DNA of 63,647 bases, the filler included, from Reclinomonas americana ATCC 50394 (lineage: Eukaryota), in assembly GCA_048213135.1 (NCBI GenBank). It is 18 parts of 18 records of this genome, joined end to end, with 100 filler letters (N's around TTAATTAATTAA, not from the genome) between each part and the next. Parts side by side here need not be neighbours in the genome. Positions count along the whole stretch, not along the records: positions 26,810 to 32,084 come from AFZH01024203.1; 17 more parts are not named here. One strand, given 5' to 3'. A program made the position numbers and the translations under genes. The notes below the pieces were generated by a model that saw only the letters and a list, made by a program, of their open reading frames with translations, ran no database searches and was not told the DNA's origin. Below, piece by piece: positions 27,015-32,184 of the stretch; positions within the stretch are counted from its first letter, which is position 1; each line of letters starts with the position of its first letter.

Positions 27015-27379
27015 ACACATATATACCACACCGGAGTAAAAAATTCTAAGGGCAAATGATCATAAACCATAAAAGAATTTTATAAAATGCTCATAAACCT
27101 GATCATAAGAGCATATAAGACCAGAAATGCCATTTTATTGACACGATTTTAAAATTATCATCATAGTGCTCATGAAAAAAATATGATCATAGAATAAGAG
27201 CATCCGGTAGAAAATATCTTGGGAAATTCATGAGCATAAAAAAATGGATCAAAATATAAATCATATAACTAAAATTATAATTGCCTCTTTTTTCCAGACG
27301 ACCTCATTTTCCTCAATTTGGTTTCTTCCGATTTTCCATGATTCTCTCGCAAAAATAAAATATCTATTCATATATCATA

Positions 27380-27634
27380 ATGTTCAAGTATAAAGGATAC
27401 ATAATTGAGGTATCAACAAGAAAGCACAAGAAATATGATGTATACAAAGACGGCAAGTATATAACATCATACGGCGACAGTAGATACGAGCACTACAAGG
27501 ACAAACTGGGTTATTATGATAAACTTGATCATAATGACAAGAAAAGAAGGGAATTATATAGAGCTCGACATAAGAAGGATCACATTAATGATCCGAACTA
27601 TGCGGGCTACTGGAGTTGGAATCTTTTATGGTGA
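27380..27634 (+). CDS. Tlr6F-like (DUF5754-type) small basic viral protein
   Basis: STRKHKKYDV...YGDSRYEHYKD...DHNDKKRRELYRARH...AGYWSWNLLW, a pattern I recognise from Polinton/PLV/virophage Tlr6F homologues. Confidence 0.8.
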   Translation: MFKYKGYIIEVSTRKHKKYDVYKDGKYITSYGDSRYEHYKDKLGYYDKLDHNDKKRRELYRARHKKDHINDPNYAGYWSWNLLW

Positions 27635-28273
27635 GAAACTAACTGAATCACTATCAGAGTTATCACTGTCAGTGTCGGAATTATAAAATGAACTTCTTGG
27701 AGTTTTATTAACATCATACTCTGTTGTTAAGAATATAATAATGTTCTGTGTCATATCACAAACATGTTGTAGTATCTTATCGACAATTTTTATGTCTTTG
27801 ATAGCTTTCAATCTTGCTACTTTAACTACTTTATCTTTGTTAAGTTCAAGATCAAAGTATTTCTTAAACTTTCCCAACTCTTTATTTAGTTCTTTTTCTG
27901 TATACTCACGTTCAAGAATTCCATGTATTAATTCTTCAATAGTATATTTAGTATGTGATATGATAGAGTCTTTCGCCTTCTGTTTGGTTGTGTATACTCC
28001 TTTTGTCACTGTGTCAGTAAATTTATCATCATAATCACCGCCGAAATATTCTATCTTTTGTTCAACTATAAAAACTGTTTGTTGAGTATCACTATCAGAG
28101 TCACATCTATCACAATCATTATCGTTTAAAAGACATTCATCTTCTTCGTCATACAATACATTATTTGCATCAAGACATTCAACGCAATATGTTGCATCAC
28201 ATCTTTTACATCTAATAAATGTACCACATCCAACATGATCACAGTTGAAACACTTATTAAAATCTGGACTCAT
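27626..28273 (-). CDS. Hypothetical viral protein with Cys-rich N-terminal zinc finger
   Basis: 215-aa intronless ORF; CFNC...C...CKRC...CVEC. Confidence 0.75.
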   Translation of the reverse strand: MSPDFNKCFNCDHVGCGTFIRCKRCDATYCVECLDANNVLYDEEDECLLNDNDCDRCDSDSDTQQTVFIVEQKIEYFGGDYDDKFTDTVTKGVYTTKQKAKDSIISHTKYTIEELIHGILEREYTEKELNKELGKFKKYFDLELNKDKVVKVARLKAIKDIKIVDKILQHVCDMTQNIIIFLTTEYDVNKTPRSSFYNSDTDSDNSDSDSVSFSP

Positions 28274-28323
28274 TATTATACAATAGAGCTATATAATAAT
28301 GTTAATTAAATGAATGCGTTTAA

Positions 28324-29431: not shown

Positions 29432-29453
29432 AGCTATATATTATGATTAGAAA

Positions 29454-32051
29454 TTAATTATAAATCCAAACATCAACATTCATTCCAACCCAATCTGTTA
29501 AATTACCATTATTTGACGTGGTTATTTGGACTTCATAATTAGTTCCAGTTTCAGCGACGCTATAATCAGTGCCGTTATAGTTTCCTGTTGTTTGAGTGCA
29601 TATTATTGATAATTGCGGAACAGTGACATAAGATCCAAAAAATAATGTACCGCTACCATCCTTAATATTATATCTACCAGTTGAATTTCTCCACACACCG
29701 ACTTGAGAACTTGACGGTGATGATGATTCAATAACATTCAAACTAGTACCACCATCATATCTTCTGACCATACCAGTGATAAGTGATCCAGACACGAATC
29801 TAAATCTAATCAATCCTTTCCATGGACTAGTAAAACCACCACCAGAAGCCCAACTATATGTTCCACTTGTATATGTTAGTGAACCATTACTTGGAGTCGT
29901 TCCAGCTATAGCAGTTAATATACTGTTTAATGGTTGTTTCTCTGAATCTAATTCATTAATGGCGTTCTGAACAGTGACACTGGATATATTGCCGGCTGGT
30001 GTATTTGTTATTTGTGATGCTGTATAATCTCCATTACTTGCGGTGATAACACCCATTCGACCAAACACACTGCTAACTTGATCGGTTGCATCTACTTTAG
30101 TCCATGCAGTGCCATCATTTAAAACCCAATCACCCTGTGTAAATGTTATACTTCCAGCTCCAAAGTTTCGAGATCCGCTGTCACTTAACACATAGAAATA
30201 TCCTTTTGCTCCAGTGTCACTATTTGCTAATGTTGGACTATTTGAAACAACACTATATTGACCTTTATAATTTAAAGCACCTAGAATAGCTTCAGGGAGA
30301 TAAGTTGTTGACACTTTAGCACCTGCATCTAATGGACAAATACCATTCGCACTTCCTTTCTCTCCTTCAATTGCATTATATTGATCTTGAAGTTGTCCAT
30401 ATGTGCAAGCATCAGCCGATACAGAACCAGGAAGCAAACTAATTGCTCTATAACTACCACCAAAGTTTAAATTGCCTGTCATCGTGCCACCACTTAAATT
30501 TAATTTAGTATCTAATTGTGATTTATTAACTGCATCATTAGAACTTGAACCATCTGCCACCCCAGTGACTTTATTACTTCCCATTGCAATATTTCCGCTC
30601 ATCGTTCCACCACTCAAATTTAATTTTGTATCTAATTGACCTTTATTAACTGCATCACCACTAGAACTACCATTTGAAACATTTGATATAACATTAGAAT
30701 TCATATTCAAACTATTAACACTTAATGAATCACTAATTAAGGTTGCTGGTGATCTTGTGCCGGATAATGTTGATGTTGATGTATTAAATAATGCATTTCT
30801 GAAACTATATATAACACCGCTCCCAATAGATATTTTGGCTAATGATCCATCAGTATTAAAACATGTCATATCACTTAATGTCAAGTTTGAACTACTTCCG
30901 CCTGTGCATGTAATCGCGAATGTTGATGATGAAGCAGAAAACACCGGCATATTACTTATTCCCAAGAAACCAGCCGATAATGTGATAGGTGATGAAGTAG
31001 AACAACCTACACATGACATAATAGCACCGGCGTTATTGACTGTCAATATGCCCATTTTACAACTATTTACTACAACAACTTGACCGGTTCCAGTGACATT
31101 TACTGCACCCGTTCCGCTTGTTCCTTGCATATCTGAATCACTAATCTCAAGATATCCACTTCCTGATTTGCTTAATGTACCGCTTATTTTACATCCTTGT
31201 AATGTTGTCGTTCCTGATCCACTAATTGTCAAATTATTAAATGCAACACCTAATATCCTAACACTTCCCACACTATTAACTGTAATTGTGCCAGTAAGAT
31301 TGACTATTCCGCCTTTTTCATAATTGACACTTGTAATTGTGATATTCTGTTGTGTGATTGTTGATGTTTCATTATAAGTTCCTGCAAATATAGCCACAGA
31401 TCGACCACTATTTGAGGCGACAGAACATGCACTTGCGATTGTTAATTTTGCAGACTGTTCACAATAGCCATCATTACTGTCATGTCCATTAACTGCAGAA
31501 ACATAAACACAATTGTTAAATACATTATTTAAATTGCCCATACTACCACTCGGAATAGTTGGGAATGTTGCCAAACTTAAATCACCTCTAAAATATTGTG
31601 CTGTCGTGCCTGTTGTTATTGTGTTTTGTTTTCCAGATTGTAAACTGGATATATTTGTATTAGCAGTTGACATTTGCCCTTGTAATGTTGTTATATTTGA
31701 TGTGTTTGTAGATATGTTACTATTTGCTGTTGTCATTTGTCCTTGCAAAGTAGAGACATTTGATCCAGTTGTATTTAAACTAACTGTATTAGTTTGTACA
31801 TCACCAGAGGAAACTAATGATGTCACATTAACAGCTGATAAATTACTTGTGCCGACATTATCATTATTTATAGTCATGGTTCCACCTGCTGTCTTGGTAA
31901 ATTGTAATGTTCCGCCTTGAACTTGAACATTTGGGCCTAATTTATATGTGTTTGTTGATCTTGTATATAATGGCACATTAGATCCGCCACTTGTCAAAAC
32001 ATTAATATCTCCACTTGATGTCAATTTAGAACATTGTTGGTCAAGGGTCAA
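29454..32051 (-). CDS. Virion fibre / tailspike-like protein (865 aa visible; true start uncertain)
   Basis: Coiled-coil ITTLQGQM repeats; beta-helix cap VYVSAVNGHDSNDG...TIASA...AGTYNE; two copies of DAVNKxQLDTKLNLSGGTM; GDWVL; VSSVFGRMG; VQNAINELDSEK. Confidence 0.8.
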   Translation of the reverse strand: MTLDQQCSKLTSSGDINVLTSGGSNVPLYTRSTNTYKLGPNVQVQGGTLQFTKTAGGTMTINNDNVGTSNLSAVNVTSLVSSGDVQTNTVSLNTTGSNVSTLQGQMTTANSNISTNTSNITTLQGQMSTANTNISSLQSGKQNTITTGTTAQYFRGDLSLATFPTIPSGSMGNLNNVFNNCVYVSAVNGHDSNDGYCEQSAKLTIASACSVASNSGRSVAIFAGTYNETSTITQQNITITSVNYEKGGIVNLTGTITVNSVGSVRILGVAFNNLTISGSGTTTLQGCKISGTLSKSGSGYLEISDSDMQGTSGTGAVNVTGTGQVVVVNSCKMGILTVNNAGAIMSCVGCSTSSPITLSAGFLGISNMPVFSASSSTFAITCTGGSSSNLTLSDMTCFNTDGSLAKISIGSGVIYSFRNALFNTSTSTLSGTRSPATLISDSLSVNSLNMNSNVISNVSNGSSSGDAVNKGQLDTKLNLSGGTMSGNIAMGSNKVTGVADGSSSNDAVNKSQLDTKLNLSGGTMTGNLNFGGSYRAISLLPGSVSADACTYGQLQDQYNAIEGEKGSANGICPLDAGAKVSTTYLPEAILGALNYKGQYSVVSNSPTLANSDTGAKGYFYVLSDSGSRNFGAGSITFTQGDWVLNDGTAWTKVDATDQVSSVFGRMGVITASNGDYTASQITNTPAGNISSVTVQNAINELDSEKQPLNSILTAIAGTTPSNGSLTYTSGTYSWASGGGFTSPWKGLIRFRFVSGSLITGMVRRYDGGTSLNVIESSSPSSSQVGVWRNSTGRYNIKDGSGTLFFGSYVTVPQLSIICTQTTGNYNGTDYSVAETGTNYEVQITTSNNGNLTDWVGMNVDVWIYN

Positions 32052-32184
32052 GGGTCAAGGGTCAAGGTCAAGGTCAGCAGCAGGNNNNNNNNNNNNNNNN
32101 NNNNNNNNNNNNNNNNNNNNNNNNNNNNTTAATTAATTAANNNNNNNNNNNNNNNNNNNNNNNNNNNNNNNNNNNNNNNNNNNN

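Follow-up and report, generated by a model that had tools for sequence, protein, structure and literature searches.

The stretch of DNA analyzed here (the window; 63,647 bases from Reclinomonas americana ATCC 50394, assembly GCA_048213135.1) contains, at positions 27015–32038, a 5,024-bp segment of 34% GC that is flanked by non-viral repeats on both sides. With somewhat better than even confidence, we consider this AT-rich segment to be a truncated endogenous fragment, 5.0 kb in length, of an AT-rich, Tlr6f-bearing double-stranded DNA virus of eukaryotic microbes. The best reading of the sequence draws the putative source virus from the gene pool in which virophages, Polinton-like viruses (PLVs), and mimivirid-type giant viruses share Tlr6f. 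These data support the proposal, made in an initial annotation, that the AT-rich DNA is viral; its description there as the end of an integrated element is doubtful, as the fragment is bounded on both sides and its fibre gene is cut by a host-type repeat.

The window consists of 18 pieces of 1.2–7.7 kb and 17 artificial spacers, each made up of an N run, the word TTAATTAATTAA (17 occurrences between N runs, none expected), and a second N run; most pieces start or finish in simple repeats. The piece of interest (26810–32084; AFZH01024203.1) is N-free, 5,275 bp long, and 34.7% GC. It is preceded by a spacer at 26710–26809, identified from word counts and sequence, and followed by another at 32085–32184, beyond which the following piece is GC-rich from the start. 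Any feature that seems to span one of the 17 spacers, such as that at 26710–26809, is artificial. The annotation's reference to a single contig holds for 26810–32084, where the junction it described does lie within N-free sequence, and for that piece alone, the window being 18 joined pieces. Within the piece, host-type and viral sequence are contiguous across both junctions (27014/27015 and 32038/32039).

Base composition sets the segment apart from its surroundings: GC content is 0.31–0.36 across 27001–32000 vs. 0.45–0.65 elsewhere in the window, dropping at the boundary from 0.45–0.49. The other pieces range from 44% to 67% GC and encode WD40, ClpB-type AAA, BNR/Sortilin-Vps10, and other cellular domains, and scans of the window for Rfam RNAs and tRNAs found none. 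Judged by its satellites, microsatellites, and cellular domains, the window background appears to resemble a GC-rich, microsatellite-rich eukaryote.

At the left boundary, the junction reads ...GATGCACAGTGAGTGTG/ACACATATATACC... (in a longer reading, ...GTCGATGCACAGTGAGTGTG/ACACATATATACCACACC...) and falls within an N-free stretch. The flank contiguous with the viral DNA (26810–27014; 52% GC) comprises two units of the host satellite array that ends the previous piece (24346–26709; periods of about 102–435 bp, recovered by Tandem Repeats Finder and by blastn of the flank). These 205 bp are 79%–92% identical to 26464–26709, with weaker matches extending back to ~24400. The flanking satellite is complex, with units of 102–126 bp; elsewhere in the array GCACAGTGAGTGTG normally continues into TGTGTGCGTGGGAGAG, and the satellite is therefore broken off mid-unit at 27014. 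Both the GC profile and the N-free junction confirm the earlier observation of a GC-rich satellite that halts here and gives way to AT-rich DNA. The viral end region that follows was likewise correctly described as a non-coding terminus of ~365 bp (27015–27379; 28.5% GC). It contains short iterated motifs in both orientations: T(G/C)(A/C)TCAT(A/G)A is present in 5–6 copies, in both orientations, at 27054–27237, and TGATCATA occurs six times in the window (vs. 1.1 expected), with four of the six occurrences in that same interval. This array could be an origin or a protein-binding array.

At the right boundary, the AT-rich DNA ends at 32038 and the piece closes with a non-coding flank (32039–32084; 59% GC) composed of (GGTCAAG)x5 + CAGCAGCAGG; the heptamer array has no other occurrence in the window. 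The junction lies at the 5' edge of the fibre gene (29454–32038, minus strand). The best relative of this gene, P0045 (1,089 aa), is 60% identical over 877 aligned columns; residue 259 of P0045 aligns with fibre residue 18, and P0045 residues 1–258 have no significant match in the whole window. Translated on the fibre strand, the array reads ...PAADLDLDP-stop-PLTLDQQCSK..., where an in-frame TGA precedes the listed TTG start of the fibre by two codons; by our reading of that strand, the heptamer repeat carries stops in all three of its frames. Because the P0045 alignment starts at residue 259 and the repeat contains an in-frame TGA, the fibre gene is 5'-truncated, with about 258 N-terminal codons lost exactly at the start of the repeat. 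A GC-rich repeat gene to the right was considered as the missing N-terminus and rejected, being on the opposite strand and giving best tblastn E-values of 0.28 and 0.028.

Between these boundaries the segment is densely packed, as had been claimed, with a coding density of 92% over 27380–32038. Its first gene (27380–27634, plus strand; 84 aa) matches PF19058 (DUF5754), the family corresponding to Tlr6f (PMC12220804), at an E-value of 5.4e-5; its score of 23.6 bits falls short of the curated threshold (27.4). A search of 5.8 billion proteins returned 37 candidates, all of them homologous (45%–78% identical, 83–131 aa), of which 26 carry PF19058, so that the Tlr6f label originally assigned to this gene is correct. 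In an alignment of 16 sequences, KKYD and a C-terminal LW are invariant and a mid H is conserved. Tlr6f proteins have been described in almost every PLV, in many giant viruses and several virophages, and in some phages that are poorly characterized (PMC4642659).

Relatives of the gene were identified in IMG/VR (140 of 181 stretches) and in metagenomes (517 of 598 stretches); of 65 candidate stretches from 185,579 prokaryote species genomes, only 2 contained relatives, both on small contigs of metagenome-assembled genomes (MAGs). We fetched 240 loci of relatives (designated by L-numbers), 160 containing Tlr6f and 80 containing the fibre module discussed below. The 908 open reading frames (ORFs) from the 160 Tlr6f loci were clustered, and representatives of the 45 largest families were annotated. 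The commonest neighbors of Tlr6f are an A32-type packaging ATPase, found in 66 of the 160 loci, a helicase of DUF5906/VapE type (27 loci), a capsid family weakly matching Capsid_N of nucleocytoplasmic large DNA viruses (NCLDV; 24 loci), and a Sputnik-type capsid (6 loci), while terminase, portal, and HK97 families are absent from the 45 largest families. An A32-type ATPase or a double-jelly-roll/Sputnik capsid family is present in 62 of the 80 Tlr6f loci of at least 10 kb. The order of the ATPase and Tlr6f genes varies across loci; in L081, the closest fetched relative (65% identity), the two adjoin. One IMG/VR contig of 23,872 bp (L075/L076) carries two opposed copies of Tlr6f, ~6.4 kb from either end, a layout that points either to an assembly artefact of the fold-back kind or to inverted terminal repeats of very great length. 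A tendency of Tlr6f to lie near genome ends was considered and dropped: by hand count, 5 of 53 Tlr6f contigs of at least 12 kb have the gene within 1 kb of an end, which is approximately uniform placement.

Phylogenetic placement of the window gene was examined with a quick maximum-likelihood tree of 166 Tlr6f proteins over 88 columns, in which many forks are unresolved. The gene falls within a group of 49 rows with a Shimodaira–Hasegawa-like approximate likelihood ratio test (SH-aLRT) value of 86, and within no smaller well-supported set. This group includes virophage-type loci, namely L002 (Sputnik V18/19-type penton, collagen) and L005 (Sputnik-type major capsid protein, penton), as well as loci of giant-virus type: L001 (PolX, kinase, NUDIX), L092 (papain protease, HMG box, and XPG nuclease beside Tlr6f), and L082, a metagenome contig of 7,340 bp in which a Tlr6f 64% identical to that of the window stands beside RNA polymerase Rpb1 and PIF1 helicase. 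The Tlr6f proteins of L082 and L092 are 50%–64% identical to the window gene. The PLV-type capsid family occurs in 23 loci, 18 of which belong to the other main Tlr6f clade. On this placement, the subclade of L082 and L092 is one that apparently moves between giant viruses and virophages. The initial annotation held that the class of the virus cannot be fixed, and we agree, given the co-occurrence of virophage-type and giant-virus-type loci in this group; for the same reason its emphasis on virophages and PLVs was too narrow, as the nearest retrievable Tlr6f relatives lie on giant-virus contigs (L082, L092, and L001) as well as virophage contigs (L002 and L005).

The remaining complete genes are all on the minus strand. 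The gene for p215 (27626–28273) encodes a Cys-rich protein (11 Cys, including four N-terminal CxxC pairs) with a weakly DUF7336-like middle; it is convergent with Tlr6f, and their 3' ends overlap by 9 nt (27626–27634), leaving therefore no space for a terminator between them. The gene for p59 (28481–28660) encodes a small protein with eight Cys and three CxxC pairs; together, p215 and p59 account for the small Cys-rich genes that had been reported. A doubtful ORF of 71 codons, p71 (28324–28539), includes a hydrophobic stretch, overlaps p59 in another frame, and has no family match; TCTA is present at −16 relative to its start, with AAAATATTGA just upstream. The gene for p208 (28805–29431) encodes a mostly helical protein, for which an AlphaFold model from a 7-row alignment has a pLDDT of 82 and a pTM of 0.71. 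Foldseek returned no match to this model at E ≤ 0.001, and Pfam no BTB match. In VIA-align, the top rows for residues 22–104 are BTB/POZ, Skp1, Elongin C, and Kv T1 structures (Z 5.0–5.8, root-mean-square deviation 2.8–3.5 Å, 70–86 residues), and the model is thus consistent with a BTB/POZ-like fold, which we regard as a modest lead.

Relatives of p208, p215, and the fibre gene were found in unannotated public assemblies. For p208, 6 of 52 candidates are relatives, the best of which (P0038) is 80% identical over the full length; for p215, the single relative among 155 candidates (P0044) is 88% identical. Because both are recorded on contigs of 17,812 bp, P0038 and P0044 presumably lie on one and the same contig. 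Fibre relatives in public assemblies are 60%–65% identical. Single-protein scans of IMG/VR with p208 and p215 returned no match, nor did a search of metagenomes and IMG/VR with the p208 alignment; the ESM Atlas contained no usable p208 match and, for p215, one 0.77 match without a family, and a PDB sequence search with p215 found none. In the clade from which the fragment derives, the genes other than Tlr6f (p215, p208, and this fibre) thus have relatives in unannotated public assemblies only.

Promoter-like motifs are present upstream of most of the complete genes. Relative to the ATG, TCTA begins at −17 in Tlr6f, −14 in p215, and −20 in p208, and is not present upstream of p59 (three of four genes); approximately 7% of segment positions have TCTA within −25 to −10. 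TCTA flanked by AT-rich sequence is the late promoter of the giant virus CroV and the motif of mavirus and type 4 endogenous mavirus-like elements (EMALEs; PMC8547959), and ChlorV shares the TCTA late promoter (PMC13196603). The early motif AAAATTGA has no exact copy in the window. This pattern fits late transcription of mimivirid type, in a virophage or a giant virus.

As to which of these is the source, a virophage or PLV type is tentatively favored and is placed slightly ahead of a giant virus, though at less than even confidence. The relatives on contigs of 14–19 kb, the long non-coding end, and the presence of late-type promoters only are points for a small virus. Derivation from a mimivirid-type giant virus, such that the fragment is a piece of a giant endogenous viral element, is possible at a lower level of confidence. 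Three of the nearest retrievable Tlr6f relatives lie on giant-virus-like contigs (L082, L092, and L001); TCTA is foremost a giant-virus late promoter; p208, with a BTB-like domain of eukaryote and giant-virus type and a modest Z, weakly matches giant-virus BTB proteins; and incomplete giant-virus insertions are known in protists (PMC10120064). However, two virophage-type loci of that tree group, L002 and L005, are just as close, the 365-bp non-coding boundary stretch and the 14–19 kb contigs of relatives fit a small genome, if weakly, and the segment contains no exact early AAAATTGA motif. No giant-virus hallmark gene (NCLDV capsid, RNA polymerase, PolB, D5 helicase, or VLTF3) was detected in the fragment with Pfam.

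The fibre gene, whose initial recognition is upheld by Pfam and PHROG matches and by homologs, contains the longest open frame of the segment (860 codons; 200 shuffles gave 97 on average and 152 at most). Its predicted product includes, in order, a coiled N-part, a 'TTAQYFRGD..FPTIP' motif (TTAQYFRGDLSLATFPTIP), a beta-helix-like middle, YadA-stalk-like repeats, and a C-part resembling phage minor tail proteins. The coiled part has weak matches to the P22 gp26 tail needle (E 7e-4 to 3e-3), the sole matches in a PDB sequence search; two YadA-stalk repeats are recognized by Pfam (4.3e-10); and the C-part, at residues about 480–810, matches phrog_13892 (1.1e-24).

These fibre modules raise the prospect that the AT-rich DNA belongs to a tailed bacteriophage, for example of a food bacterium or a contaminant. 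Among 50,697 phage records, 112 match the fibre (28%–35% identity in the 15 listed), and the modules at residues ~141–187 and ~480–810 are 28%–49% identical to minor tail and tail-fibre proteins of tailed phages (phrog_13892; Gordonia and Rhizobium phages). A scan of IMG/VR with a 3-sequence alignment of the fibre module led to 80 retained loci, and all seven that were sampled are tailed phages, with a head-tail connector, tape measure, portal, or HK97 capsid. Additionally, Tlr6f occurs in some poorly characterized phages (PMC4642659), and Tlr6f and p215 have weak PHROG matches. Nevertheless, coverage of the fibre stays below 80% in all 112 records, the 80 phage-like fibre loci carry no other gene of the fragment, and Pfam and PHROGs identified no terminase, portal, or HK97 capsid gene in the fragment. 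The Tlr6f type is nearly absent from prokaryote genomes, no Shine–Dalgarno-like sequence precedes the four starts, and phage-like fibres, like Tlr6f, are normal in PLVs (PMC12220804; bioRxiv 10.1101/2022.07.28.501842). A phage origin is very unlikely, as Tlr6f, p208, and p215 have no match in the 50,697 phage records.

Against these lines of evidence for a truncated endogenous fragment stand a number of observations. A target-site duplication was sought at the two boundaries and not found: the flanks ...GTGAGTGTG (AGTGTG) and GGTCAAGG... (GGTCAA) share no 4–6-mer. A second or inverted copy of the viral end (27015–27379) was likewise sought, in the window alone, and none is present there. Pfam and PHROGs identified no capsid, penton, A32 ATPase, protease, integrase, or polymerase gene among the ORFs of the 5-kb segment; as the segment is a truncated fragment, the absence of double-jelly-roll capsid and penton genes does not decide its virophage or PLV status. 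No second gene of the fragment occurs in the 240 fetched loci, apart from a weak fibre match in L013 (E 0.001), and p215, p208, p59, and p71 are all absent from the 160 Tlr6f loci. For the TCTA pattern, our own arithmetic gives a chance of ~0.0014 for at least three of four genes, with the interval picked after seeing the data and four genes only. The Tlr6f group itself mixes virophage-type and giant-virus-type loci, and giant viruses have BTB domains more often than virophages do. Furthermore, the putative integration lies in a 5.3-kb piece of a very fragmented assembly, and short-read assemblies break and distort endogenous viruses (PMC10120064). Both junctions lie in repeats, and the viral genes look untouched by residence in a host.

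These last points bear most directly on an assembly chimera, in which free-virus or contaminant DNA was joined to host repeats by the assembler or gap-filler and nothing is integrated. The fragmentation of the assembly (18 pieces of 1.2–7.7 kb in 64 kb, most ending in simple repeats), the placement of both junctions within repeat DNA, and the viral composition and intact genes, which lack any sign of host residence, all favor such an artefact. Yet a chimera would require the assembly to have gone wrong twice, independently, within 5.3 kb, the left flank consists of complex satellite (205 bp) rather than a low-complexity tail, and the right join cuts the fibre gene cleanly at the first heptamer. 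Neither junction has a long shared word able to mislead a k-mer assembler, and none is shared between the left flank and the viral end. We consider a chimera improbable and a real integration probable, as a single insertion is likelier than two separate assembly errors over 5.3 kb.

If integrated, the segment might alternatively be, as in the reading of the initial annotation, the visible part of a full-length virophage or PLV provirus whose genes for capsid, ATPase, and integrase were left unassembled or unlinked, either because the assembly broke in a repeat or because a host repeat or retroelement entered the fibre gene. Endogenous viruses come out of short-read assembly as small contigs and can be hit by retrotransposon insertions (PMC10120064), and 105 partial EMALEs, along with Ngaro insertions, are known (PMC8547959). 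The complete genes are all intact, the p208 and p215 relatives lie on 17,812-bp contigs of virophage- or PLV-like size, and the TCTA motifs are as in mavirus-type elements. Conversely, the GC-rich composition of the next piece from its first base, the lack, across the window, of any further AT-rich viral DNA or of a copy of the lost fibre N-terminus, and the stops in all three fibre-strand frames of the heptamer repeat leave this explanation doubtful.

For a truncated fragment, the history may have been as follows. Viral DNA in an infected cell would have been joined into a satellite-rich region, or later truncated within it, by illegitimate end-joining or by a host repeat or element inserting into the fibre gene. 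Entry as a clean, integrase-made, full-length copy is not favored: the boundaries lack a target-site duplication, and the window shows no second, inverted viral end. What remains would be four complete genes and a beheaded fibre gene, with the genes presumably transcribed from giant-virus late promoters of TCTA type. As the four complete genes are intact and still AT-rich, their sequence suggests a recent arrival. The fragment is predicted to be unable to reactivate alone, because capsid, packaging, replication, and integration genes are absent from it.

The fragment shares several described features with the EMALEs of Cafeteria burkhardae (PMC8547959). These elements, too, consist of AT-rich, intronless viral DNA embedded in a GC-rich genome of flagellate type; EMALE types 1 and 2 carry Tlr6F; TCTA lies upstream of type 4 and mavirus genes; and truncated and partially assembled copies are known. 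In contrast, EMALEs are described as 5–15 kb (truncated) or full-length, with inverted ends and with major capsid protein, penton, ATPase, protease, and integrase genes, none of which is seen in the fragment. The integrated PLVs and virophages of protists (PMC10120064, PMC12220804) also show a GC drop at the insertion boundary, carry Tlr6f and long phage-like fibres as cargo, and appear as fragments in short-read assemblies (PMC10120064). As delineated in those sources, they are defined by a capsid and at least two other viral genes and often have inverted ends, whereas neither a capsid gene nor, in the fibre, the Peptidase_S74 chaperone domain frequent in such elements is present in the fragment.

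A further comparison is with a Polinton-like virophage of Phaeocystis, PgVV-14T or Gezel-14T (bioRxiv 10.1101/2022.07.28.501842). The core genes of this virus include Tlr6F, which the fragment also carries, and the longest PgVV-14T gene encodes a phage tail-fibre-like virion protein; the fragment likewise has a phage-like fibre gene. PgVV-14T genes are transcribed from giant-virus promoters, as may be true of the fragment given its promoter-like TCTA motifs. Differences include the early AAAATTGA motif, present in PgVV-14T and without an exact copy here, and the fibre type, which is T4 gp36-like in PgVV-14T and YadA-stalk and minor-tail-like in the fragment. Endogenous fragments of Nucleocytoviricota are also incomplete AT-rich insertions in protists, Tlr6f and BTB-type genes occur in giant viruses, and TCTA is the late promoter of CroV and ChlorV (PMC13196603); unlike such fragments, the segment has no hallmark gene in view, and the relatives of two of its genes lie on contigs of only 17.8 kb. 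Tailed phages resemble the fragment in their fibre modules and differ in that its other genes were not found in them.

Repeats continue across the spacers on either side of the viral piece. The satellite at 24346–26709 resumes at 26810–27014, and to the right a GC-rich gene or genes of 28-aa (84-nt) repeats ('..GGSVTTTGSMQAGTISTGSTVTAGGLIT..') extends over three pieces (32185–37098, plus strand). Because adjacent pieces often share one repeat across a spacer, the pieces probably stand in scaffold order. The repeat gene has no Pfam family, PDB sequence match, or IMG/VR relative, with a sub-threshold Bflower_2 match (E 5e-4) on one of the three pieces; from its repeats, the predicted protein looks like a beta-solenoid surface or fibre-like host protein.

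Endogenous virophages, PLVs, and giant-virus fragments are already well documented in protists (PMC8547959, PMC10120064, PMC12220804), and the value of the present fragment is therefore as a host–virus pointer rather than as a new principle. A more ambitious scenario, which we regard as unlikely, is a three-way system in which a GC-rich heterotrophic or parasitic flagellate carries virophage-type proviruses on CroV-like TCTA late promoters, implying an undiscovered mimivirid. Were this true, a full element with capsid and integrase genes would lie in unassembled repeats and could reactivate on giant-virus infection, like mavirus in Cafeteria; such a mavirus-like defence applies only if the remaining viral genes lie beyond the repeat. 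The junctions are PCR-ready for testing for full-length, inducible copies. If the integration is real, the segment would be a record of past infection of the host lineage by a Tlr6f-bearing virus, and, since that virus has close environmental relatives (60%–88% protein identity), the fragment would tie an environmental virus clade to its host.

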